IMG/VR virus record: IMGVR_UViG_2695420685_000015
DNA from: a virus
Taxonomy: Duplodnaviria > Heunggongvirae > Uroviricota > Caudoviricetes
Length of the DNA stretch: 50,864 nt
Strand: one strand, 5' to 3'
Each line of letters starts with the position of its first letter. Position 1 is the first letter of the stretch. Made by a program: the position numbers and the translations under genes. Positions 1 through 17,292 of this stretch are shown here, in pieces. A model generated the notes under the pieces. That model worked only from the letters and a program-made list of their open reading frames with translations. It was not told where the DNA came from and did not search any database.

Positions 1-3
1 CTA

Positions 4-324
<321 letters not shown>

Positions 325-328
<4 letters not shown>

Positions 329-513
329 ACTGGTTTTCAAATCACTTTGGAAAAATTTGGCTGGCAATTCTTGCCCTCATGGCCGCCGGTTGGGTATCGA
401 ACATTATAAAACTTGTTTGCTCTGGCGATCTCCAGTTTCAGGCTGGCATGACCTTGGCTCGTGTAGTTGGGATTTTTATTTTTCCAGTCGGTTCGGTACT
501 TGGTTATTTCTGA
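325..513 (+). CDS. small hydrophobic (membrane) protein
   Basis: ATG start, 62 aa, hydrophobic stretch WLAILALMAAGW and IFIFPVGSVLGYF. Confidence 0.4.
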
Positions 514-548
514 CGGTTGTTAGTGCATATGCATTGACCGTCTTTGCG

Positions 549-583
549 TAAGCAATTTATTTAACTAGAAAACAACTTGTTTT
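549..583 (+). promoter_or_regulatory. class-A promoter/operator copy 1
   Basis: AGAAAACAACTTGTTTT perfect palindrome at 567-583, 24 nt upstream of ATG 607. Confidence 0.55.
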
Positions 584-606
584 GACAAATAACAAAAGGA
601 AAACAC

Positions 607-1032
607 ATGTTAGGTTTCTTCAAAAAGAAAACTCGTAAAGCAGTTATCGAAGTCAAAAAAATGGAGAACCGTGATGCGGTTGAGGCCACCGTGTGGGGCG
701 CGTACATGATCTCCTATGCCGACGGCACATGTGACGCAAAAGAAATTGCCATTCTTGAGAAGACAATTGCAGCTCTGCCTGCGTTTTCTCCGTTTGCTGG
801 TGAAATTGCCCAAATGAGCGCCAATATCCGTGCTCGTTACGAAGCGTCCCCTCGTTCTGCTAATGCACAGGCTATTCGTGAGCTGTCTGATATTGCTGGT
901 ACTCCAGAGGCGGTCGATGTTCTGTGTCTGTGCCTTGATATTGCCGATCAGGATGGCATTGGTGAACAAGAAGAGCAGGCACTGAAAAAGATCGCCCAGG
1001 CGCTTCAGTTGTCACTGGATGCTTATCTCTAA
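607..1032 (+). CDS. TerB-like domain protein
   Basis: ATG with AAAGGA RBS; 141 aa; duplicated D-G-x-x-D-x-x-E-I/Q pattern (DGTCDAKEIAILEK and DQDGIGEQEEQALKKIA) typical of TerB family. Confidence 0.6.
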   Translation: MLGFFKKKTRKAVIEVKKMENRDAVEATVWGAYMISYADGTCDAKEIAILEKTIAALPAFSPFAGEIAQMSANIRARYEASPRSANAQAIRELSDIAGTPEAVDVLCLCLDIADQDGIGEQEEQALKKIAQALQLSLDAYL

Positions 1033-1190
1033 TGCTTGAGAGATTCCGGCTTGTGATCGTCATTGCTCTTCTGGTGATGGCGGTGTTGGTGGATTTTACG
1101 GGAAAGATGATGTCTGTCATTTCTGATGGCGTCCTCATTGGTTTGGCGATCTACTTCGCTTATCCGTTAGTTCGTAAAGCAAAGTGTTAA
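1032..1190 (+). CDS. small membrane protein (52 aa), translationally coupled to TerB-like gene
   Basis: ATG overlaps upstream TAA (TAATG); MLERFRLVIVIALLVMAVLVDFTGKMMSVISDGVLIGLAIYFAYPLVRKAKC; followed by terminator. Confidence 0.4.
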   Translation: MLERFRLVIVIALLVMAVLVDFTGKMMSVISDGVLIGLAIYFAYPLVRKAKC

Positions 1191-1193
1191 TGA

Positions 1194-1219
1194 CAAGGGC
1201 CATTTGGCCCTTGTGTTTC
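1194..1219 (+). terminator. rho-independent terminator
   Basis: caagggccatttggcccttg hairpin followed by tgtttcg. Confidence 0.6.
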
Positions 1220-1278
1220 GTTGACCGAAATAGAGAGTTTGCACCTTTACGTTTAGCTTGCTCCCCTTATATGCCACA

Positions 1279-1311
1279 TCACAATAAAACCAATAAGAAA
1301 ACAACTTGTTT
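1279..1311 (+). promoter_or_regulatory. class-A promoter/operator copy 2
   Basis: AGAAAACAACTTGTTT at 1296-1311 upstream of ATG 1330. Confidence 0.55.
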
Positions 1312-1329
1312 AAGCATTAAGGAAAACAC

Positions 1330-1896
1330 ATGTGCGAGAAATGCAAAGCAATAGCTGATGAACAAAACGCCCTATTCGAAGAAATGGATGCTAATGAACT
1401 TGTCAAAATGTTATCCATTCTTCGAGGAATAGAAGACGTTTCCATATTTGAGAGACTGTTTACAATACTTAATTTTAATTCCACCTTTGAAGAGCCAACT
1501 CAGATTGTAGCTTTGGCACACCATTTCGGTGTTCATTACCTTGCTGAAAAAGAGAGAGCTGATAAGTTGCAAGCGACTTTGGATATGGTGAGCGAGACTC
1601 AAGGAACTGATGACGGTAACAAAAGTGAGACGATTATTGCCAGCAAAGATCGTGAAATTGCCGGGCTTAAATCCTCTCTAACGATGTTGATGTCTGCAAT
1701 CAACCTTATGTCTTCTAAAGCAGGTTATAAAATGCCATCACTAAACAGCGACGATCCGATGGCCGTTCGCCAGCTTTTAGGTGCAATGGCCGACCAGCTC
1801 GACGACACAAAGAGTCGCCTTGAAGACATGATGCGGGAGCTCACGCATCGCCATGACTTGAATAAGCAGCCGCACAAAACGCAATACGCACTCTAA
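1330..1896 (+). CDS. hypothetical protein
   Basis: ATG start after conserved GGAAAACACATG initiation region; 188 aa; terminator downstream. Confidence 0.6.
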   Translation: MCEKCKAIADEQNALFEEMDANELVKMLSILRGIEDVSIFERLFTILNFNSTFEEPTQIVALAHHFGVHYLAEKERADKLQATLDMVSETQGTDDGNKSETIIASKDREIAGLKSSLTMLMSAINLMSSKAGYKMPSLNSDDPMAVRQLLGAMADQLDDTKSRLEDMMRELTHRHDLNKQPHKTQYAL

Positions 1897-1913
1897 TACT
1901 GCACCAGTCGACA

Positions 1914-1935
1914 GGGGGCGAAAGCCCCCATTTTT
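1914..1935 (+). terminator. rho-independent terminator
   Basis: gggggcgaaagccccc hairpin then attttta. Confidence 0.65.
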
Positions 1936-1990
1936 ACGCCTTAAATCTGCTGTAACGCCTATGAATGCAGCTTTTATGCCTTTTCAAGTT

Positions 1991-2025
1991 TGCGATAATT
2001 ACACCAATCAGAAAACAAATTATTT
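1991..2025 (+). promoter_or_regulatory. class-A promoter/operator copy 3 (degenerate palindrome)
   Basis: TGcGATAAT extended -10-like at 1991-1999, then AGAAAACAAATTATTT at 2010-2025. Confidence 0.5.
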
Positions 2026-2037
2026 AATGGTGTAATT

Positions 2038-3723
2038 ATGAATACAGCCCTTTCTATCATCGACGATGCCAGCTCAAACACGGCTATCGACTATCGTCAG
2101 GAAATGAATGTCATCCACGAAATCGTGGCCGAGTGCGAGAAAGAGATCGCCTTCATGTATCAGGTACACGACTTCGTTTATGGCGACGAACGCCACAACA
2201 TGATTAATCGCCTGCTGAGACTAAACCATCGACCAGATGAAGATCGCTCGCGTTTAAATCGAGGTTGGTTGGATAAAGTCGATCTGGAATGGGTGAAACA
2301 GAATATTTGGGCCGAGTACTGGAGGAAGGTCACGGACATGACTAACGTTTTGCTGATCATGCCAGCTTCCCGTCGAGATGAGTGGCGCGAGCAGTTTATA
2401 GAGGGCAAACAGGAAGTCATCAAAACTGACAGAACCGGCTACCAGATGAAGGTTAAAGAGTTCGTTGGTGTACCGGAGTTCAAAGCAGAAACGGTCATAC
2501 CCACGATGCTTAATTTGCTGAATGACAGGCACAAATATCTCTCTGAGCGCGTGTATGGCTTGTTTAAGGCGCTGAGTCCTGCGCACAAGACAAATAAGAC
2601 AAACGGTTTCAGCGAGCGGCTGATAATCGCTGACTGCATTTCTGATTTCTGGCGGGACAGCGTTAGCGTGAACTATCGCAAAGAGGACTACATCGACGAT
2701 CTGCGTGTCTTGCTTCATTTCTTCGCGCACAAAGAATTTATTACCATCAACCGCACTGCTGAGGTGCTATCAGCTGCGTATAGGGCAAACGACTGCCAGA
2801 CCGGTGACTGGATGAACGTCGATGGAAATCTGATGCGCGTGAAGATGTTCAAGAACGGCAACGTTCACTTTGAAATACATCCTGACGTGGCCTGGAAGTT
2901 GAATGAGGTGCTGGCTTACAGTATGCCTGCTGCAATCCCCGCGCCATGCCGAACTGCGCCAAAAACACGGGCACCAAAGCAGTTCGGGTTAATCCAGAAG
3001 ACGATCTCCGTGCCGGTTCGCACTGCGCTTCGTGACGGGCGATTGAGCAAAGACAAAGGCGTATGGTACTTCTCTGATTCAGCTCTCCAGAAGTCGCAGG
3101 TGGAAGAGCTTGAGCGCACACTGAGCTTCATTGGCGGCGTGCAGGAGAAAAAGCACTGGCAGTTCCCGTATGACATCGGCCATACGCTAAATACGATTGT
3201 GGCTACCGGTTTAATACCGGATACTAAATCACACCAGTTCTACCCTACCCCACGCTTGATTGCTGAGTACGTTGCCAGAGCCACTGAATTGAAGTCTGGT
3301 GAGAAGCTGCTGGAGCCTCAAGCCGGACGTGGGGATCTTCTGGCCTATATTAACGCCGATCTGGAAGATGTTACCTGCATAGAAATCGCACCTCTCTTCG
3401 CTGATATCCTGCGTGGAAAAGGGTATACGAACACGATTTGCTGCGACTTCATAAAGTGGTCTGAGGACAACGCAGGTTATCAGTTCGACAAAATCGTTAT
3501 GAACCCGCCGTACTCGCTTGGTCGTCATAGAGAGCACACGATGGCTGCGCTGGGGCATCTGAAAGTCGGCGGGCGTCTTGTAGCAGTATTGCCGGGCACT
3601 GCGCCAATACTGGACTGGATGACGATGGATAATTACGTTTATGCCAGAGGGAAGTCGTTTACCAACGAGTTTGAAGACACAGGGATCACAGTCAGCGTAT
3701 ACGTTTTCAAACGCGTTAAATGA
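2038..3723 (+). CDS. orphan N6-adenine DNA methyltransferase with large N-terminal domain of unknown function
   Basis: C-terminal region has motif order FYPTP (motif X), LLEPQAGRGDL (motif I, SAM binding), VMNPPY (motif IV), i.e. gamma-class amino-MTase layout; no adjacent restriction gene. Confidence 0.8.
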   Translation: MNTALSIIDDASSNTAIDYRQEMNVIHEIVAECEKEIAFMYQVHDFVYGDERHNMINRLLRLNHRPDEDRSRLNRGWLDKVDLEWVKQNIWAEYWRKVTDMTNVLLIMPASRRDEWREQFIEGKQEVIKTDRTGYQMKVKEFVGVPEFKAETVIPTMLNLLNDRHKYLSERVYGLFKALSPAHKTNKTNGFSERLIIADCISDFWRDSVSVNYRKEDYIDDLRVLLHFFAHKEFITINRTAEVLSAAYRANDCQTGDWMNVDGNLMRVKMFKNGNVHFEIHPDVAWKLNEVLAYSMPAAIPAPCRTAPKTRAPKQFGLIQKTISVPVRTALRDGRLSKDKGVWYFSDSALQKSQVEELERTLSFIGGVQEKKHWQFPYDIGHTLNTIVATGLIPDTKSHQFYPTPRLIAEYVARATELKSGEKLLEPQAGRGDLLAYINADLEDVTCIEIAPLFADILRGKGYTNTICCDFIKWSEDNAGYQFDKIVMNPPYSLGRHREHTMAALGHLKVGGRLVAVLPGTAPILDWMTMDNYVYARGKSFTNEFEDTGITVSVYVFKRVK

Positions 3724-3725
3724 TA

Positions 3726-3742
3726 GGTAAATACTTACTTAA
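3726..3742. promoter_or_regulatory. class-B palindrome copy (TAAGTA-n-TACTTA family)
   Basis: ggtaaatacttacttaa, 43 nt upstream of ATG 3785. Confidence 0.4.
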
Positions 3743-3784
3743 TTTGTGTAAGAGTTTAGTGGCTAAACGATAAGAGAAAAACAC

Positions 3785-4489
3785 ATGAACAACCTCCAGT
3801 TAGAGCATTTTAACGTCACAGGCCATTCTGATTTTCCTTTCAAGTTTACATTGAAAGGTTATGCAGAGGATGCGGTAGGCCAGATCATTATTGATAAAGG
3901 CATCGTTAAGTTTGAGGGGAATTTTGATGAATCCGCGAAAACATTCATAGACTTCGTTGCCAAACGTTGGAGCGAGCAATGGAAAGACCTGGAAAAGCGC
4001 GCTAGTGAGTTTGATCGGTTCATGGATGCAATGGATACAGCAAAAGAGGCTCTTGCTGCCGGGACTCCGTTAGATCTTGAGTCACTTTTCAACGGCGAAG
4101 TGGCCTCTGCGATGTTCGCCACCATGTTCGCGGGTGAGTTCGTCCGCAGCGGTGCCAAAAACTACCTTGAGCTGGATTACAACGTCTCTGCAATTGGCGA
4201 TTTCGTCGTTACCATCCAACGCAAAGAAGGTAAGACGCCAGGTGAACGCGTCGCAGAGCTTGAGGCCGTTGTGGATCAGCGTAACGGAGAGTGTGACCGT
4301 TTGATCAACGAGCTTCATGCACTTCGGGAAGAAAGAATATGTGCGGGTAGCAATACACGTAATGCAGCGGATATCTACTTCCAGTTAGTTGAGGAATGCC
4401 AGATTCCACCAGGTGGCTCTCTTGTCGATTACGTCAGACATTTAATGGCGGAAGTTAACTCCAGCCATAAAGATGGTGAGGTGCGCTGA
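3785..4489 (+). CDS. hypothetical protein
   Basis: ATG start, 234 aa, G/C-rich third codon positions. Confidence 0.6.
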   Translation: MNNLQLEHFNVTGHSDFPFKFTLKGYAEDAVGQIIIDKGIVKFEGNFDESAKTFIDFVAKRWSEQWKDLEKRASEFDRFMDAMDTAKEALAAGTPLDLESLFNGEVASAMFATMFAGEFVRSGAKNYLELDYNVSAIGDFVVTIQRKEGKTPGERVAELEAVVDQRNGECDRLINELHALREERICAGSNTRNAADIYFQLVEECQIPPGGSLVDYVRHLMAEVNSSHKDGEVR

Positions 4490-4869
4490 TGTTTGGCATT
4501 GACGCACAGCGTATAGCCGCTTTTGCAAAAAGCCCTCTTGATAATCCCTTGTCTCGTAGTGAGCAAATGGAGCTGGCAAGGCTTTTTCTTCACATTCAAA
4601 AACAGGCAGACATTTTCAATAACATGCCTAATCAACCTATTCTGGATGGTCACATCCAGATGGTCATTAACAGTCATGAGAAAGGCTGGGCTGCAATCGT
4701 CCCCTGCACAATTACATACAAGTTGGCGAAAGAGGTTCAAGAGTTTCGAAAAGCCAGTGTCGAATCGGAGTCTACCAAAGCCGCAATAAACACTCTTATT
4801 CGCATGGGGTTCACATGGAACGGTGGAGCCTACTGGCAAGCACCTCACCCCATTTTATCCGGCAATTAG
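4489..4869 (+). CDS. hypothetical protein
   Basis: ATG overlaps upstream TGA (translational coupling); 126 aa. Confidence 0.55.
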   Translation: MFGIDAQRIAAFAKSPLDNPLSRSEQMELARLFLHIQKQADIFNNMPNQPILDGHIQMVINSHEKGWAAIVPCTITYKLAKEVQEFRKASVESESTKAAINTLIRMGFTWNGGAYWQAPHPILSGN

Positions 4870-4924
4870 ACGCTACAAATCCTTCGGCATGAATAAATAA
4901 AGGCCATAAGTTGTGGCCTTAAAT

Positions 4925-4978
4925 AAATTGTTTTCTACCTTTTCTTATTTGTGAAAATAACCACAACTAGAAAACAAC
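4925..4978 (+). promoter_or_regulatory. class-A promoter/operator copy 4
   Basis: Upstream half-palindrome AATTGTTTTCTACC, TGtGAAAAT -10-like, then AGAAAACAAC at 4969-4978. Confidence 0.5.
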
Positions 4979-4988
4979 GGAGTTAAGA

Positions 4989-5630
4989 ATGTCTAGTATT
5001 TCCGAAGCTCATATGTTCGCCGCTGGCGCTCATGGTGGCGTTGGTCAGAAAAGAAAATATACCGGCGAAGACTACATCAACCACCCGGTTGCTGTCCGAG
5101 AGATTGTTGCATTGCATGACGGAACCGTGGAGATGCAAATCGCGGCGCTTCTGCATGATGTGGTCGAAGACACCCATGTAACCATAGAGATGGTTCGTGA
5201 TCACTTCGGTGAGCGCGTAGCTGAAATGGTTCAGGCTCTGACCAACATTGCAAGGCCAGAAGACGGCAATCGAATACAGCGTTTCATCATCAATGTCCGG
5301 GAGCTGGAGCAAAATCTCGACATGCAGACGCGCATGATCAAGCTGGCTGACCTGCTCGACAATACCTCTTCTATCGTGAGTCGCGATCCCGAGTTTTCAG
5401 CTGTCTACCTCGCAGAGAAAGAACTGATGCTGGACGTACTCTTTCACGGCAAAGAGATTGGTGCCAACGCTGATGTTGTCGAGTACATGGAGAGGATAGG
5501 AATAGAACACCCGTTGCTATTAAGCGCAATGGCGAAAGTCACTGAAGGTATTGCGCTTCTGAAACCGGTACACATCAAACGTTATGAAAAACACAAATCG
5601 CTGATCTGGAGCGCGTGGGAGGCTGCATGA
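4989..5630 (+). CDS. HD-domain (p)ppGpp hydrolase-like protein (small alarmone hydrolase, SpoT/Mesh1 family)
   Basis: YINHPVAVREIVAL...AALLHDVVEDT matches the RelA/SpoT hydrolase HD signature; 213 aa, no synthetase domain. Confidence 0.8.
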   Translation: MSSISEAHMFAAGAHGGVGQKRKYTGEDYINHPVAVREIVALHDGTVEMQIAALLHDVVEDTHVTIEMVRDHFGERVAEMVQALTNIARPEDGNRIQRFIINVRELEQNLDMQTRMIKLADLLDNTSSIVSRDPEFSAVYLAEKELMLDVLFHGKEIGANADVVEYMERIGIEHPLLLSAMAKVTEGIALLKPVHIKRYEKHKSLIWSAWEAA

Positions 5631-6169
5631 AGGTCGAAAAAATAGATGTTCTTTCCTTTGTGCTGACGGATCTGGAACGCCTCGATCCGGTTCGAGTAAT
5701 GATTGAAAACTACGAACCTGGTAAGGGAAGAATCACCATCATCTGCTACGGAAAAGCGTGGACTGCGGCTTGGTTTGCTATGGGCGGTGATGATGTGCAG
5801 ACGTTCATTAAGCGGGTCAGCAACGAGTATCTAATCGGCTATTTCGACTCTCAACTGCGAAGCACGGTCGACGATGACAACGATGCAAATCTGCTTTTCG
5901 TGAAGTCAGAAATCATAAAGTTACGAAGAGAGAGAGAAATCGACGCCGTACTGGCTCGTGAAATGTGGGACGAGGCGGAAAACGCCGATGACGTAAAAGA
6001 AAGCTGCTGTTGTTTCGGCGTCGGTAACAAACTGCTGAATCTCTTTGGTGATGATCCGTGGTATGCCGACTGGCCAACGGTACCAAACCCGAAATACCAG
6101 TATCTGGAACGCATTGTGAACGCGGTACGTGAAGGGCTGAAAGAGTTAGATAAGTTAGAGGCATCGTAA
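5627..6169 (+). CDS. hypothetical protein
   Basis: ATG overlapping upstream TGA with GGGAGG RBS; track start 5615 is GTG. Confidence 0.55.
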   Translation: MKVEKIDVLSFVLTDLERLDPVRVMIENYEPGKGRITIICYGKAWTAAWFAMGGDDVQTFIKRVSNEYLIGYFDSQLRSTVDDDNDANLLFVKSEIIKLRREREIDAVLAREMWDEAENADDVKESCCCFGVGNKLLNLFGDDPWYADWPTVPNPKYQYLERIVNAVREGLKELDKLEAS

Positions 6170-6669
6170 TGAGAGAGAAAATCAAGAACCCGGTCGTCGT
6201 ATTGTATAAACGGGAAACCAGCGATTCTTATGCGGTATCCATCACTGATGGAAGCCAGAACATGCACGATGGTCTGCTAATGGCCTCCGTATCTCCTGAT
6301 GATTCTGACTACCCTTTCGCCACTTTCGCTATGGTTGGTTACTACATGGCTGCCGAAATTGAGAAGTTGCGAGCGCAGAGAGACGCATTAGCGGCGGAGA
6401 ATGCAGCCCTGAAAGAATCTGAGCGAGCATTCGATGCGATGTGTGCCGAGGAACACGGAGATAATTGGGTTAGCGAATTAACGGAGACTCCAGCCACCGA
6501 TGCTTTTCTGGCTGAAGTACGTGCGCAGGGCGTGGATATGGCTCGTAACGCGATGATTGATTTTGTTGATGGTGAAGTTGGGCCAAACAAGAACGTTCCG
6601 GGGCTGATTAGAGGCGCAGAGATATGCGTAAGTATTGCTGAACAGCTTCGTAAAGGAGTCATCCAGTGA
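6169..6669 (+). CDS. hypothetical protein
   Basis: ATG overlaps upstream TAA; 166 aa. Confidence 0.55.
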   Translation: MREKIKNPVVVLYKRETSDSYAVSITDGSQNMHDGLLMASVSPDDSDYPFATFAMVGYYMAAEIEKLRAQRDALAAENAALKESERAFDAMCAEEHGDNWVSELTETPATDAFLAEVRAQGVDMARNAMIDFVDGEVGPNKNVPGLIRGAEICVSIAEQLRKGVIQ

Positions 6670-7067
6670 GCAAGATTGACTATCAGGCACTGCGTGAGGC
6701 GGCAGAGCGTGCAATTCCGGCAATGGAACGCCTGTTAATGTTGCCAGTTGATGATGATCTGATAAGCGAACAGGAACTTAAAGATAGCGGTGTTGATATT
6801 GATGCCCTCAACGCCTTCAAATTTCTGGCCGGACCAGAAACCGTGCTGGCACTACTGGATGAGATCAACGCATTAGAGGAAACGCGTATCAACGATGTTT
6901 GCCGTATTGCGGAACTAACAAAACAACTGGAGTTGGCAAAATCAAAACTCAACGAGCAGCGTGAGTATTACGAGGGCGTTATCTCGGATGGAAGTAAGCG
7001 CATAGCCGCTCTTCTTCGCAAGGACAATCTTGCCAGCGCCACGAACATTGAAGGTGAAAGAAAATGA
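6666..7067 (+). CDS. hypothetical coiled-coil protein
   Basis: GTG start with AAGGAG RBS 7 nt upstream; 133 aa. Confidence 0.5.
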
Positions 7068-7912
7068 CCACATCGCACTCTGCTATTACCCAAGAAAAAG
7101 CCTTCAACATACTCGAACGACTAGAGACGCTCGCTACGGAGGAGGAGATATCCCCGGAGAAACTGGTTGAGTTCAGCCGTGTGATATTGCGTCGCAAGAA
7201 CGATATGGAGCGGCTGACATCTGGCGCTCCATCCTTATCAGTCAGGCGAACACTTTGTTGCAGCTTCTGCAACAAATCCCAGTACGCCGTCAAAAAGTTA
7301 ATTGCTGGGGACGCCGTTTTCATCTGCGACGAGTGTGGATGTGTGCAACAGAATTATCCGGGGAGAGAAAGAGGGATCAGCATGAAATTATCCAAATTTT
7401 CTGAGTTGGTGAATCGTATTTTGTCCAACAACCACAGCCATCGTCGCGATATGGATGTAACGATCGTTGTTCATTCGCCTGGTCGCATCGGTTCAACACC
7501 ATCAGTTGAGGTTCAGTCAATTAAGGCGGGTTTTGATTGGGATGCCGGGCAAGTGATGATTTTTCCATCACAGCCACTGACCACGCTAACACCAGAGCAG
7601 GTTGCTGATATCACTGATAGTGTGCGCAAAGGTCAGTCTTGGCACGCGTATCAGGAATACAAGAAGCATAAAGAGCAGTTGGAAAAATTGTCGATGGAGT
7701 TGGAAGCCGCTAAACAGCGGGAAAAAGATCTGTTTATGGAAAATGTTCGACTTAAGTCAGGTATAGCCGGTCTGATACACCTCGGTATTCGATATGCGGA
7801 TGTTGAGGTCATGAAAATTGCTGGAGATGCCCAGCTTTCTACTCCATGCACTGACAGCATCATAAACAGCATTGCAGCAGGCATTTTCACCAAAGAGGGG
7901 GCAGCACGATGA
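7064..7912 (+). CDS. ClpX-type C4 zinc-finger domain protein (ClpX N-terminal zinc-binding-domain homolog fused to unknown C-terminal region)
   Basis: [31 protein letters not shown] closely matches ClpX N-domain [29 protein letters not shown]; no AAA+ module in this 282-aa protein. Confidence 0.65.
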
Positions 7913-8094
7913 GAACACTAGAGGTTCGCGCTGAAGACGTAATCCCTGGTGATGTGCTCATAACATCTAAAGGTCAACAATGTGCGGTTAAATCTTTTTG
8001 GATGGAAAATGACAAAGTGACTCTGTTCGGTACGGATGGTTCCGAAACTGATTATGACTACGACGAATTGCTTGTTGTTGAGAGAGCTGCCTAA
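7909..8094 (+). CDS. hypothetical small protein
   Basis: ATG overlaps upstream TGA; 61 aa. Confidence 0.45.
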
Positions 8095-10612: not shown

Positions 10613-10639
10613 AGGTGGTGCATTGCACCACCTTTTTAT
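10613..10639. terminator. bidirectional terminator between UmuD-prime-like gene and apbC
   Basis: aggtggtgcattgcaccacct hairpin then ttttta. Confidence 0.65.
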
Positions 10640-11739
10640 CACACTGCGCGGAATGCGATTTCGCCAGGTATTACTTCACCTTGCCAATACATTTGGGCAG
10701 CAACGCGATCTGCGAGGTCACGATAAATAGCCGTAAATTCGCTATCTGGACGACTAATAACGGTTGGTGTTCCGTTATCCAGATCTTCACGAAGAGAGAT
10801 ATGAAGTGGCATTTGGCCTAACAACTGCGTGTTGTATTTCTCGGCCAGTTTCTGTGCGCCACCGGTGCCAAAAATTGGCTCGTGATGACCGCAGTTACTG
10901 CAAATATGCACACTCATGTTTTCGACGATACCTAGTACCGGCACTTCGACTTTTTCGAACATCACAATGCCTTTCTTCGCATCGATCAGCGCGATGTCTT
11001 GCGGCGTAGTTACCACAACCGCACCAGTTACAGGAATGTTCTGCGCCAGCGTCAACTGAATATCACCAGTGCCCGGCGGCATATCGAGAACGAGATAGTC
11101 CAGATCAGGCCATAGAGTTTCCTGCAACATCTGCATCAGCGCCTTGCTGGCCATCGGTCCACGCCACACCATTGCATTGTCGTCGGTGACCAGATAACCA
11201 ATAGAGTTGGTTGCCAGGCCATGAGACATGATAGGTGCCATGTGAGTACCGTCAGGTGAGGTTGGACGTTGGTTTTCCGCGCCCAGCATGGTTGGAATTG
11301 ATGGACCATAGATATCGGCATCCAAAATACCAACTTTCGCACCTTCAGCAGCCAAAGCCAGTGCCAAGTTTACTGCTGTGGACGATTTGCCTACACCGCC
11401 CTTGCCTGAGCTTACGGCGATAATATTCTTAACACCATTAATGCCTGGTTGGTTTTTGACGCGCTTAAGCGTGGCAATGTTGTACGACAGCTTCCAGTCA
11501 ATAGCCTTTGCGCCAGTGATACGGAGCAGATCACCACTACATTGCTCTTTCAGGTCTTCAAAAGGCTTATTCCACACGAAAGGCATGATTAGTTCGACAT
11601 GCAGTGTGTCATCCATCAACGCAACATGGTGTAACGCTTTAAGCGTAGTCAGGTTGTGTTTCAGGGTTGGGTGCTGAAAATTAGCCAGCGTACCGGCTAC
11701 CATTGCTCTCAGGGCATCCGGCGATTTGGACTCGCTCAT
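10639..11739 (-). CDS. apbC: iron-sulfur cluster carrier ATPase ApbC/Mrp
   Basis: 366 aa; deviant Walker A SSGKGGVGKSSTAVNLA, C-terminal CSNCGH motif; AAGGAGA RBS; from memory near-identical to E. coli Mrp. Confidence 0.95.
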   Translation of the reverse strand: MSESKSPDALRAMVAGTLANFQHPTLKHNLTTLKALHHVALMDDTLHVELIMPFVWNKPFEDLKEQCSGDLLRITGAKAIDWKLSYNIATLKRVKNQPGINGVKNIIAVSSGKGGVGKSSTAVNLALALAAEGAKVGILDADIYGPSIPTMLGAENQRPTSPDGTHMAPIMSHGLATNSIGYLVTDDNAMVWRGPMASKALMQMLQETLWPDLDYLVLDMPPGTGDIQLTLAQNIPVTGAVVVTTPQDIALIDAKKGIVMFEKVEVPVLGIVENMSVHICSNCGHHEPIFGTGGAQKLAEKYNTQLLGQMPLHISLREDLDNGTPTVISRPDSEFTAIYRDLADRVAAQMYWQGEVIPGEIAFRAV

Positions 11740-11896
11740 CCCGTCTCCTTTATTTTAATTTGCGCAATTGTCGCCTTGTAGTGTACTCCAGCTGCGACAT
11801 TTAATCATTTATGAGAAATGCTGTTATCACATGGCAGACATAAGGCCATTTTGTTACTATCAAGCCCCTTTTCACTACAAAGAAGTAATGCCTACT

Positions 11897-13930
11897 ATGA
11901 CCCAAGTCGCGAAGAAAATTCTGGTGACGTGCGCGCTGCCGTACGCTAACGGCTCAATCCACCTCGGCCATATGCTGGAGCACATCCAGGCTGATGTCTG
12001 GGTTCGTTACCAGCGAATGCGCGGCCACGAGGTTAATTTCATCTGTGCCGACGATGCCCACGGTACGCCGATCATGCTGAAAGCACAGCAACTTGGTATC
12101 ACACCGGAGCAGATGATTGGCGAAATGAGTCAGGAACACCAGACTGATTTCGCAGGCTTTAACATCAGCTATGACAACTATCACTCGACGCACAGCGAAG
12201 AGAACCGTCAGTTGTCTGAGCTTATCTATACTCGCCTGAAAGAGAACGGTTTTATTAAAAATCGCACTATCTCTCAGTTGTACGACCCGGAAAAAGGCAT
12301 GTTCCTGCCGGATCGTTTTGTGAAAGGCACCTGCCCGAAATGTAAAGCGCCAGATCAATACGGCGATAACTGTGAAGTTTGCGGCGCGACCTACAGCCCG
12401 ACTGAACTGATCGAGCCGAAATCGGTGGTTTCTGGTGCTACCCCGGTAATGCGTGATTCTGAACACTTCTTCTTTGATCTGCCCTCTTTCAGCGAAATGT
12501 TGCAGGCATGGACCCGCAGCGGTGCGTTGCAGGAGCAGGTGGCAAACAAAATGCAGGAGTGGTTTGAATCTGGTCTGCAACAGTGGGATATCTCCCGCGA
12601 CGCACCTTACTTCGGTTTTGAAATTCCGAACGCGCCGGGTAAATATTTCTACGTCTGGCTGGACGCACCGATTGGCTACATGGGTTCCTTCAAGAATCTG
12701 TGCGACAAGCGCGGCGACACTACCAGCTTCGATGAATACTGGAAGAAAGACTCCACCGCCGAGCTGTACCACTTCATCGGTAAAGATATCGTTTACTTCC
12801 ACAGCCTGTTCTGGCCTGCCATGCTGGAAGGCAGCAACTTCCGCAAGCCGACCAACCTGTTTGTTCACGGCTATGTGACGGTGAACGGCGCGAAGATGTC
12901 CAAGTCTCGCGGCACCTTTATTAAAGCCAGCACCTGGTTGAATCATTTTGACGCTGACAGCCTGCGTTACTACTACACTGCGAAACTCTCTTCGCGCATT
13001 GATGATATCGATCTCAACCTGGAGGATTTCGTTCAGCGTGTGAATGCCGATATCGTGAACAAAGTGGTTAACCTGGCGTCCCGTAACGCTGGCTTTATCA
13101 ATAAGCGTTTTGACGGTGTGCTGGCAAGCGAGCTGGCTGACCCGCAGTTGTACAAAACCTTCACTGATGCCGCTGAAGTGATTGGTGAAGCGTGGGAAAG
13201 CCGCGAATTTGGTAAAGCTATCCGTGAAATCATGGCACTGGCTGACCTGGCTAACCGCTATGTCGACGAGCAGGCTCCTTGGGTAGTCGCAAAACAGGAA
13301 GGTCGCGATGCTGACCTGCAGGCGATTTGCTCAATGGGCATCAACCTGTTCCGCGTGCTGATGACTTACCTGAAACCGGTACTGCCGAAACTGACAGAAC
13401 GTGCGGAAGCATTCCTGAATACGGAACTGACCTGGGATGGCATCCAGCAACCGCTGCTGGGCCATAAAGTGAATCCGTTCAAAGCACTGTATAACCGTAT
13501 CGACATGAAACAGGTGGAAGCATTGGTGGAAGCGTCTAAAGAAGAAGTGAAAGCTACTGCCGCGCCAGTTACTGGCCCGCTGGCAGACGACCCGATTCAG
13601 GAAACCATCACCTTTGACGACTTTGCCAAAGTTGACCTGCGCGTGGCACTGATCGAAAACGCAGAGTTTGTTGAAGGTTCTGACAAACTGCTGCGCCTGA
13701 CGCTGGATCTCGGCGGTGAAAAACGCAATGTCTTCTCAGGCATCCGTTCTGCTTATCCAGACCCACAGGCACTGATTGGTCGTCACACCATTATGGTGGC
13801 TAACCTGGCTCCGCGTAAGATGCGCTTCGGCATCTCCGAAGGTATGGTGATGGCTGCTGGCCCCGGCGGGAAAGATATCTTCCTGTTAAGCCCGGATGCT
13901 GGTGCTAAACCTGGCCACCAGGTTAAGTAA
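11897..13930 (+). CDS. metG: methionyl-tRNA synthetase
   Basis: 677 aa from ATG 11897 (track start 11768 is an upstream extension); [15 protein letters not shown] motif, KMSKS motif, CPKC...CEVC zinc knuckles, C-terminal tRNA-binding domain; from memory ~99% identical to E. coli MetG. Confidence 0.97.
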
Positions 13931-15753: not shown

Positions 15754-15884
15754 GTGTAATTAGCTTAATCAATCAGTTGATAATGGCGGTCACAATTTGA
15801 TTCTTTTCTATAAGAATCCGTTGATCGCCACTACTCTTCTTCCATACCTGCAATCACACCTTTAAATATCAATAGGTTAACGTT

Positions 15885-16640
15885 GTTTATACCAATAATA
15901 AAACAACTAAATAACAGATCAACGAAACGTCAACGCTTTCACCCGATTTGGTCTAAAAAATTGACGTATTCACACATCACTTCTTATACCCGTAATTCTA
16001 CGCAGCAGACAGCGCCACAGCGTCCAATTTTCACCACAGACGACCCAACACACTACCAACAAAAACACACGCTCAAAATCACTCCCATTGCGTTACATAA
16101 CTATATAAACAACTTATTTTCAGCTATAACAAAACAACTAAATAACACACATGCCATTCCCCAAAACAACCAACCTCTTTATGGCAGGCTACCGAAAAGA
16201 CCCACCTCTTCTCCCCAGGCTACCGGACAGCCAACCTAACTTTCACAGGCAATCCGAAAACATTCATACGCGCGATACCCACGACACGCCATTCCCCAAA
16301 CAGCGAAGAAACACCAGAATCACTGAAAACCCAACGAAGCCTGTAACCGCAAGGATTCTCTCAATCCCAAAAGACACGAAACATAACAATCACGGGAAAC
16401 GCCATTACCCAATACACGAATAACTACAAAAGCCCTTCACACACTCCAGACAAACAACTCAAACACAATAACGAAAGGATTCGCCCACCTGCCATTACTC
16501 CATACATGGAGAAGAACAATCACCAAAACGACGAGAACACCCCATAGAAGAACCACCGCAAAACGAACGAAACCACATACACCGACAGAGAAAACAACAC
16601 ACCCAATTCACCAACAGAAATAGTCGCCGTATAGAACATT
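15885..16640 (+). other. A+C-rich strand-asymmetric ORF-free tract (candidate noncoding RNA or structural DNA element)
   Basis: About 75-80% A+C on the + strand over ~760 bp in sampled 60-nt blocks; no ATG-initiated ORF; internal short repeats (aaaacaactaaataaca twice, ccattccccaaa twice). Confidence 0.6.
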
Positions 16641-16736
16641 CTGGAAGGAGTGAGCATTAACGCCTATAGAGAGGTTGAGACAGATAAAACACAACATGCA
16701 TAGCGAAGAAGCCAGGTATGTATAAGTGGGGAGGGA

Positions 16737-16759
16737 AGGAGGGGTGTCGCCTCCTTTTT
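16737..16759 (+). terminator. rho-independent terminator downstream of A+C-rich tract
   Basis: aggaggggtgtcgcctcct hairpin followed by tttt. Confidence 0.55.
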
Positions 16760-16822
16760 CGTATTTATTCAACTCCTGATTTTATCCCCCGTAACACCCC
16801 TACGGTCAGCCTTCGGTCCATA

Positions 16823-16960
16823 CAGGGAAAAGGCTGCATCCCGCTACAGAAACGGCTGGGTTGCCTTCGGGGAACGGCTGGAGGTTTTCAGGGAAACGGT
16901 CGAGTTGCCTGTGTGGATTTCGGGAGAAGGCTCGATGCCGGTTCAGGAACGGTGGCGTAC
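16823..16960. repeat. iteron-like direct repeat cluster (core GGAAACGGC)
   Basis: cagggaaaaggctgcatccc, cagaaacggctggg, gggaacggctgga, gggaaacggtcgag, gggagaaggctcga, caggaacggtggcg at about 21-30 bp spacing. Confidence 0.6.
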
Positions 16961-17257
16961 CGGTATAGCGAGAGGGAGAGTTGCGGCTACCCACCTGTAA
17001 TGTGCGGGAAGAAGAGAGGCGCTCACGTAGGCGGACTTGCTTACCGCTGGATTCCCTCTGAATGCCCAGCTACAGCGTAATTGTGCCAGACAGCCAACGG
17101 GTCACAATCGATTTCAGTAGGTTTTCGGGGAGAGGATTATTCTGCCCACCAGCCACTAAATCAGAATAATGTAAAAAGTGTACTCGGTACTGAACCTGAA
17201 AACTCACTACCAAAACCACATTCACCGGAATAAAATCCTTTTTCGCCTGTGCGTTAT

Positions 17258-17292
17258 TGCGATAATAACACCATCAAGAAAACATGTTGTTT
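17258..17292 (+). promoter_or_regulatory. class-A promoter/operator copy 6
   Basis: TGcGATAAT then AGAAAACATGTTGTTT at 17277-17292; first in-frame ATG 17284 lies inside the motif. Confidence 0.55.

Follow-up and report, generated by a model that had tools for sequence, protein, structure and literature searches.

A predicted orphan adenine methyltransferase of SSU5-like phage-plasmids joins a minimal C-terminal core to a conserved DUF4942 module

How a methyltransferase selects its target when its catalytic motifs fill the last part of the chain and no recognition domain follows them is the question raised by one gene near the start of a 50,864-nucleotide stretch of Caudoviricetes DNA (IMG/VR record IMGVR_UViG_2695420685_000015), the whole of which is called the window below. 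The window is part of an SSU5/pHCM2-like phage-plasmid, and its first part (bp 1-8 kb) is 99.9% identical to the Escherichia coli plasmid pECOH89 (NC_023916, 111.7 kb). The gene itself is intact:

2038..3723, + strand: complete open reading frame of 561 residues plus stop, ATG to TGA, encoding a DUF4942-methyltransferase fusion.

Its product is named “DUF4942 domain-containing protein” by RefSeq in pECOH89 (WP_024269809), while the orthologue in phage SSU5, which is 92% identical, is annotated as “DNA methyltransferase”. An identical protein is present on 191 contigs and belongs to a 1,384-member 90% cluster; this is a real gene, and its motifs are far beyond what chance would give. On balance, we favour the view that it encodes an active orphan N6-adenine DNA methyltransferase of the phage-plasmid, in which the N-terminal module would select the target and which would methylate the element's own DNA.

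The enzymatic part was delimited with a full-length AlphaFold2 model built from 32 homologues (mean predicted local distance difference test score, pLDDT, 83.8; predicted template modelling score 0.71) and with an alignment of 137 cluster representatives, each of them 29–35% identical to the 561-residue protein, to which the conservation values below refer. The following features make up the core:

3214..3720, + strand: minimal seven-stranded class I S-adenosylmethionine (SAM)-dependent methyltransferase core, residues 393-561, extending to the C-terminus (AlphaFold2 model, Foldseek and PDB sequence match).
3232..3252, + strand: motif X, HQFYPTP, residues 399-405, with Q400 100% invariant (motif positions and alignment).
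3313..3336, + strand: motif I, EPQAGRGD, residues 426-433, SAM binding, with E426 and G430 100% invariant (motif positions and alignment).
3382..3384, + strand: E449 at the end of strand 2, the acidic residue of motif II, conserved in 96% and Asp in the rest (AlphaFold2 model and alignment).
3445..3450, + strand: D470-F471 after strand 3, motif III, conserved in 99% and 98%, respectively (AlphaFold2 model and alignment).
3502..3513, + strand: motif IV, NPPY, residues 489-492, catalytic; NPP followed by F (79%) or Y (20%) in the family (motif positions and alignment).

The seven strands of the model span residues 424-426, 445-449, 465-468, 483-488, 508-519, 533-542 and 551-559. EPQAGRGD follows the first of them, E449 ends the second and NPPY comes directly after strand 483-488, which is the arrangement of class I enzymes. 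Motifs X, I and IV all lie within the last 163 residues, packed near the C-terminus as described in an earlier note on this DNA, and because the seven-stranded fold takes up the chain to residue 559 of 561, the C-terminal target-recognition domain (TRD) that the note had reported missing is indeed absent. The loss of catalytic residues on alignment, which would have spoken against that note, was not observed: the residues for catalysis and SAM binding are in place, and in the 137 distant relatives they show little or no variation, Q400, E426, G430, N489 and P491 being conserved in every one of them. The core is thus predicted, with high confidence, to be an active SAM-dependent methyltransferase.

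Comparisons with known proteins suggest that this core belongs to the DNA amino-methyltransferases. The whole protein matches PHROG 6263, “DNA methyltransferase”, from end to end (E 6.2e-300, residues 1-561 against profile positions 1-548 of 548). Foldseek matches against the PDB are confined to the core, reach E of about 1e-7 for many class I methyltransferases, and include M.TaqI, the M subunits of StySJI and EcoKI, CamA and M.BseCI. The sole match to PDB sequences is to residues 22-110 of M.TaqI, aligned from motif X through motif IV. Among the PADLOC profiles, the core matches mad2 (E 1.5e-14, residues 394-523 against positions 265-401 of 492) and Type II methyltransferases (1.4e-10), while the single Type IIG match covers a short stretch of the core with an E of 0.0011. 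The Pfam N6_Mtase model (PF02384) gives 13.8 bits, below its gathering threshold of 20.4, and some of the relatives likewise give sub-threshold matches only.

The class best described by these features is the gamma class, represented by EcoKI HsdM and M.TaqI (Pfam N6_Mtase). The protein shares with it the motif order X, I, (II, III), IV, a (Q)F/Y-x-TP motif X, an NPPY/F motif IV and the class I fold. It differs in lacking both the C-terminal TRD found in TaqI and the HsdS partner of EcoKI, and in the size of its core (~170 residues, compared with ~240 in TaqI). Its additional 390 residues are placed N-terminally and are unrelated to HsdM_N or to any known TRD. Since the SAM-binding motif precedes NPPY, the protein does not show the order of beta-class enzymes, namely an N-terminal DPPY, a central TRD and a C-terminal FxGxG. 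A fused enzyme of the Type IIG/IIL kind (MmeI or Eco57I type), in which a PD-(D/E)xK nuclease is followed by a helical domain, the methyltransferase and a TRD, was also considered and rejected, as there is no C-terminal TRD and hhalign was negative for the N-terminal module.

This leaves the N-terminal residues as the place to look for recognition. They were described in the earlier note as a domain of about 400 residues of unknown function; the region is indeed uncharacterised, but it is not anonymous, since Pfam DUF4942 covers residues 140-295. The organization of the module and of the segments joining it to the core is as follows:

2095..2400, + strand: residues 20-121, helical N-terminal part of the module, variable at first and conserved over residues 91-120 (W95, T102 and W116 at least 95%; AlphaFold2 model and conservation).
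2455..2922, + strand: residues 140-295, Pfam DUF4942 (PF13708), the most conserved part of the module (E 1.6e-20, 74 bits, cut-off 25).
2578..2610, + strand: residues 181-191, PAHKTNKTNGF, a loop with 100% invariant H183, T185 and N186 (AlphaFold2 model and alignment).
2695..2706, + strand: residues 220-223, DDLR, with D221 at 100%, L222 at least 95% and R223 at 98% (alignment).
2821..2904, + strand: residues 262-289, a beta-beta-helix element with D262 (99%), G274, H277 (100%), H281 (87%) and N289 (100%) (AlphaFold2 model and alignment).
2923..3009, + strand: residues 296-324, a proline-rich and basic linker (net charge +5) with conserved A299-I300-P301 and R305 (sequence and alignment).
3010..3213, + strand: residues 325-392, a small variable alpha/beta domain preceding the core, with conserved G366 and F376, which accompanies the core in PHROG 9133 (AlphaFold2 model, PHROGs and conservation).

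The DUF4942 model is matched by all 17 of the aligned relatives searched (17/17), although it spans just ~155 of the ~390 conserved N-terminal residues. Both the Pfam family and PHROG 6263 thus clearly include this protein, but they are labels without an assigned function. Six polar residues of the module are 100% invariant across the 137 relatives (H183, T185, N186, D221, H277 and N289); R223 and D262 are conserved in at least 98%, and many aromatic and glycine positions are conserved as well. The most variable stretches are residues 1-90 and the small alpha/beta domain (316-390). In the full-length model, pLDDT falls below 50 at residues 182-185, in the loop carrying H183, T185 and N186, which suggests a flexible functional loop that may contact the substrate.

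The module has no convincing relative among the solved structures searched. A separate model of residues 1-392 (pLDDT 82) gave weak winged-helix matches in structure comparison, which would be compatible with DNA binding but prove nothing, and the viral structure library returned two uncharacterised proteins of ~250 residues and no other match. Searches of PDB sequences with phmmer and with a profile (hmmsearch) gave nothing below an E of 0.07, and of the weak Pfam signals in the module (E up to 5), none was common to more than one sequence. Kinship with the nuclease, helical or TRD domains of MmeI was rejected, the hhalign probability against an MmeI-family protein being 0.35%. In the literature, DUF4942 was found in passing mentions only, with no study or methyl-transfer data for any member of the family; nothing was found on Methyltransf_27, and nothing relevant on the methyltransferase of SSU5/pHCM2 or on orphan methyltransferases of phage-plasmids.

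The association of module and core was followed with a profile of residues 1-392, run against a library of 1.8 billion proteins clustered at 50% identity. It matched 1,586 clusters, 414 of them at E ≤1e-30, and nearly all of the best 150 are proteins of 500–600 residues in which the module is N-terminal and is followed by ~170 residues. Free-standing modules, as would be expected of a two-subunit system, were looked for among the short versions and rejected case by case: in two (L010 and L012) the gene is frameshifted and the methyltransferase part carries on in another frame, three (L013, L014 and L015) have been truncated or have decayed, with the core not encoded by a gene of its own, and two (L008 and L009) are cut off by contig ends. 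As the short versions result from frameshifts, truncations or contig ends, the architecture of an N-terminal module followed by a minimal core is essentially fixed.

Some of these partial copies deserve a description of their own. The frameshifted gene of the metagenomic contig L010 (3001-4621) lies directly downstream of a complete 905-residue MmeI-family Type IIL enzyme (113-2830), which has its own methyltransferase; because three assemblies share this frameshift, a genuine pseudogene or a programmed shift may be the explanation, as opposed to an error of sequencing. Several E. coli records contain a 158-residue “hypothetical protein” that clusters with the gene (P0391, P0393 and P0394; window 2038-2510), and PHROG 16000, of 158 positions, matches residues 1-157, which together suggest that some copies of the gene are split or cut short after residue ~157. 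In one E. coli plasmid the match is limited to the first 448 nucleotides of the gene.

In the mechanism that we propose, the C-terminal core of ~170 residues, EcoKI/TaqI-like and thus of gamma type, would bind SAM through motifs X, I, II and III, and the methyl group would pass to the exocyclic N6 amine of a flipped-out adenine at NPPY. Since the core lacks a recognition domain, the fused 390-residue module most likely takes on the binding of DNA and the choice of target; its predicted functional site would comprise H183/T185/N186, D221/R223, D262, H277 and N289, and it would be coupled to the core through the basic proline-rich linker and the small variable domain. Expression would probably occur with the early or replication-side genes of the element, and the enzyme would methylate the element's own DNA, which would thereby be shielded from restriction in new hosts and/or marked for the element's own purposes. 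The parts of this proposal are not equally firm. DNA is the likely substrate, and we lean towards the N-terminal module being the part that binds or recognizes it; anti-restriction as the main role, the self-protection read from the genomic context in the earlier note, is a tentative assignment, and adenine N6 as the modified atom and the timing of expression are points that we infer.

The genomic context is that of an orphan enzyme. The ten neighbouring proteins (within ~6 kb) comprise TerB, DUF3927, hypothetical proteins, an HD_4 phosphohydrolase, Ead/Ea22, a ClpX zinc finger and DUF551, and Pfam and PHROGs assign none of the ten to a nuclease or restriction family, in agreement with the earlier note, according to which no restriction enzyme is adjacent. 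No HsdS-like gene is present among the neighbours examined, and no linked nuclease or cognate endonuclease was found in five further contexts (Klebsiella, Providencia, Variovorax, unclassified Enterobacterales and an IncHI2 plasmid). Since no neighbour belongs to a restriction family and the neighbours differ in related elements, the gene is best regarded as an orphan methyltransferase. Membership of a Type I, II or III restriction-modification system was rejected, because no cognate endonuclease is co-inherited with the methyltransferase. Membership of MADS was rejected too, as only the core matches mad2 and no other defence families adjoin it (the neighbours having been searched in Pfam and PHROGs, not in PADLOC).

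The gene is carried at 44–99% identity by elements of ~100–118 kb in Escherichia, Salmonella, Klebsiella, Citrobacter, Cronobacter, Enterobacter, Buttiauxella, Xenorhabdus, Providencia, Moellerella and Morganella. Its surroundings are exchanged between them: in the Klebsiella element the HD_4 gene is upstream of the methyltransferase gene instead of downstream, and in the Providencia element the methyltransferase gene is bordered by a fimbrial operon on one side and a ParDE pair on the other. Retention while the neighbours change indicates a persistent gene of the element and not a sporadic moron, which makes the “accessory” status previously given to it doubtful. Relatives at 33–38% identity occur in the early-right regions of lambdoid prophages, in Variovorax and unclassified Enterobacterales; the prophage copies follow repressor/Cro-like and replication genes and adjoin other orphan methyltransferases. 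Full-length relatives are also present in Pseudomonas and Aeromonas phages, and a 563-residue version is found near a Dam gene on IncHI2 plasmids, so that every context examined is a mobile element (phage-plasmids, phages, lambdoid prophages and IncHI2 plasmids). Among complete E. coli genomes, 251 of 5,426 carry the gene, with 247 of the 256 matching places on plasmids. As for the surrounding sequence, 3,465 plasmid records, among them 145 of Yersinia and those of many conjugative plasmids, have megablast matches to window 1-8000, yet just 43 cover at least 80% of it, which indicates that short modules of it are widespread beyond SSU5-like elements.

The possibility that the N-terminal module sets the target has to be weighed against its conservation. 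The DUF4942 core (residues 150-295) is 40% identical to the most distant aligned homologues and the catalytic domain 42%; judged from the alignment, the former is as conserved as the latter and lacks the variation between distant relatives that would be expected of a specificity-setting TRD, unlike the variable TRDs of enzymes with diverse specificities. This weighs against the module acting as a TRD of that kind, and with a site that is invariant across the family, the enzymes probably share one specificity or have little or none. The protein could accordingly be imagined as a DNA adenine methyltransferase that is barely or not at all sequence-specific, or that acts on single-stranded or replicating DNA, and that gives blanket protection in the manner of M.EcoGII and M.EcoGIX, with the module as a generic DNA clamp or as a tether to replication or packaging. 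Three groups of related or comparable enzymes bear on this alternative.

The first is YdcA, a putative adenine methylase of 187 residues from IncF leading regions, the closest plasmid relative of the core (31% identity over it, E 1e-14). Like the fusion, it is an orphan carried by a mobile element; its surroundings, which include an antirestriction gene, ssb, psiA and a ParB-like gene, are of an anti-defence kind. It consists of the bare core, without an N-terminal module or any recognition domain, which favours the alternative. A split version of the fusion in IncF plasmids, with ydbA as the module and ydcA as the core, was rejected, since the upstream ydbA is DUF3560 and has no similarity to DUF4942; only ydcA is related. 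The second group consists of the polyvalent (DarB-type) proteins, in which methyltransferase segments match residues ~396-522 of the core (PHROGs 15406, 11358, 10691, 5143 and 9133, with 1,259–3,925 profile positions). These giant phage proteins are thought to act on entering DNA, which also supports the alternative, and their methyltransferases are described as EcoKI/TaqI-like DNA adenine methyltransferases (Iyer et al. 2017, PMC5512222). “Structural proteins” of Pseudomonas phages match the core too and belong to the same broad EcoKI/TaqI-like lineage, with a presumed anti-restriction role. Unlike the polyvalent proteins, the one studied here has a single function in 561 residues, with no helicase/SNF2 partner domain and no sign of packaging into the virion, and DarB of P1 is absent from the tblastn matches at E ≤1e-5.

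The third group comprises M.EcoGIX and M.BceJIII, single-strand-specific and from plasmid leading regions, and M.EcoGI and M.EcoGII, which are non-specific and come from prophages; they are also orphan adenine methyltransferases and stay silent during ordinary growth. Promiscuity is documented for phage and plasmid methyltransferases (PMC5778455, PMC7736820), and M.EcoGIX helps plasmid entry against restriction (PMC7736820), so that by analogy it may serve as a functional model for a possible role of the DUF4942-methyltransferase. The analogy is however functional only: kinship with M.EcoGIX, M.EcoGI or M.EcoGII was rejected, as those enzymes are of the beta class (DPPY before the SAM motif, ~350 residues) and have no sequence relationship to the protein. 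Moreover, a family that reads a single fixed sequence, in the manner of Dam, would be expected to keep its recognition residues invariant just as well. This alternative is considered unlikely here.

A further reading of the same invariance, to which we give a similarly small chance, is that the N-terminal module represents a new type of domain for handling nucleic acids, provided with an invariant active or binding site (H183-x-T185-N186, D221-L-R223, D262, H277 and N289), and that the core is no longer a classical sequence-specific enzyme. The target of such a module might be a DNA structure or an intermediate of replication or packaging; alternatively, it might link methylation to a second chemical step, or confer a single conserved specificity effective against a widespread class of restriction systems.

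A sequence-specific orphan enzyme could also serve mainly to regulate the element epigenetically, for example its replication, its packaging or its change between plasmid and lytic states, in the way that phage P1 uses Dam methylation. The persistence of the gene across the SSU5-like group despite exchanged surroundings agrees with such a role, as does its position in pECOH89, on the same strand as, and just downstream of, a replication and nucleotide-metabolism block (nrdAB, thymidylate synthase, DHFR, exonuclease, a Dam-like methyltransferase and RNase H). The Dam-like enzyme of the block also means that the element already has a separate methyltransferase, and the second may differ from it in role. 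On the other hand, the family is found in unrelated lambdoid prophages, lytic-looking phages and IncHI2 plasmids, and a portable function such as protection fits this spread better; self-regulation as the main purpose is therefore rather improbable.

Still less probable, and in our view very unlikely, is that the substrate is not DNA and that the NPPY core methylates host RNA (rRNA or tRNA) or protein for host takeover, with the module recognizing that substrate. NPP(Y/F) cores do occur in RNA m6A (N6-methyladenine), m2G (N2-methylguanine) and glutamine methyltransferases, the Foldseek matches of the core in the PDB also include several RNA methyltransferases (TrmN, Trm11, RlmL and a putative rRNA methylase), the NCBIfam RNA methyltransferase models KsgA and Erm match it weakly (E 0.0014–0.12), and one source labels a fragment “predicted RNA methylase”. 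The profiles of DNA methyltransferases nevertheless match better than the RNA ones by many orders of magnitude (about ten), which on sequence grounds argues for DNA over RNA. Motif X (QFYPTP) and the best PDB sequence match, M.TaqI, are of the DNA amino-methyltransferase type, and the copies in prophages adjoin other DNA methyltransferases. Finally, that the module is a second enzyme, for example a metal-dependent nuclease, and the protein a fused restriction-modification or anti-defence enzyme is the least probable of all and hardly to be expected, even though the six invariant polar residues (three of them His or Asp) form an active- or metal-site pattern, H277, H281 and N289 lie on a beta-beta-helix element and an orthologue is labelled “RE endonuclease” in one phage record.

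Returning to the favoured orphan DNA methyltransferase, the sequence upstream of its gene contains one further feature:

1914..1936, + strand: terminator-like hairpin GGGGGCGAAAGCCCCC (hairpin 1914-1929) followed by a T run, ~100 nucleotides upstream of the start codon (consensus match only).

Its location suggests that the DUF4942-methyltransferase gene starts a new transcription unit; a promoter scan upstream of the gene gave no convincing promoter, and nothing was found in scans of the window for Rfam families, tRNAs and tandem repeats. The Dam-like methyltransferase mentioned above is a 197-residue “phage N-6-adenine-methyltransferase”, a second orphan adenine methyltransferase encoded in pECOH89 ~4.5 kb upstream of the window start (L001 9366-9959), where it closes the nucleotide-metabolism and replication block; its counterpart in the Klebsiella relative is PF05869 Dam.

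The gene has also left a trace in a host genome. In the chromosome of E. coli AST85 (NZ_AP043644), one type I-E CRISPR (clustered regularly interspaced short palindromic repeats) spacer is an exact 32-nucleotide match to it, at window 2713-2744 (L018 1501-1533). The spacer is leader-proximal in an array beside cas2e-cas1e, and is therefore the most recently acquired. The protospacer is flanked by CAT on the + strand, that is ATG on the spacer-sense strand, and ATG is an interference-proficient protospacer adjacent motif of type I-E systems. The spacer is a natural record of CRISPR immunity against SSU5-like phage-plasmids.

The remainder of the window contains, in order, an apbC-metG block, a helicase/ParB region, and then terminase, portal, capsid, tape-measure and tail genes. 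The block, at window 10639-13930, is a divergent pair of apbC (mrp) and metG (methionyl-tRNA synthetase) genes located on the phage-plasmid. It is a diverged copy of a chromosomal locus present in all of the complete E. coli genomes searched (5,426/5,426), to which it is mostly 80–95% identical at the nucleotide level, while the copies on other E. coli records of this kind, of ~110–113 kb, are 98.5–99.7% identical. Further along, ~1.5 kb (window ~15754-17284) has no annotated gene in pECOH89. Its composition is odd, with a GC skew of -0.20 and an AT skew of +0.34 in 16001-17000. Short, imperfect direct repeats are present in small number, for example a neighbouring pair of 31-nucleotide units at 16161-16222, and neither an Rfam match nor a tandem array was found. 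A control region without coding function, or one akin to an origin, is a possible interpretation.

The enzyme part of this protein is ordinary, orphan phage methyltransferases are commonplace and existing understanding is not overturned. The family is also already annotated and very common, and the value of the finding lies in a conserved N-terminal module that has no characterised relative. SSU5/pHCM2-like phage-plasmids are common in clinical Enterobacterales and can carry extended-spectrum beta-lactamase genes; pECOH89 is reported to carry CTX-M-15, and relatives of the DUF4942-methyltransferase are present on IncHI2 resistance plasmids. If the enzyme protects incoming DNA from restriction, it would help to set how wide a range of hosts such elements can enter. 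To enzymology, the family offers a clean system for the swapping of recognition modules, since the choice of substrate by its minimal adenine methyltransferase core would come from a strictly conserved, uncharacterised module, and it is a possible source of a new specificity or of a promiscuous enzyme for DNA-footprinting methods. Should the module instead prove to be the new nucleic-acid-handling domain considered above, the DUF4942-methyltransferases would form a distinct architectural class, spread over phages, phage-plasmids and large conjugative plasmids, in which a conserved N-terminal recognition module takes the place of a variable TRD.

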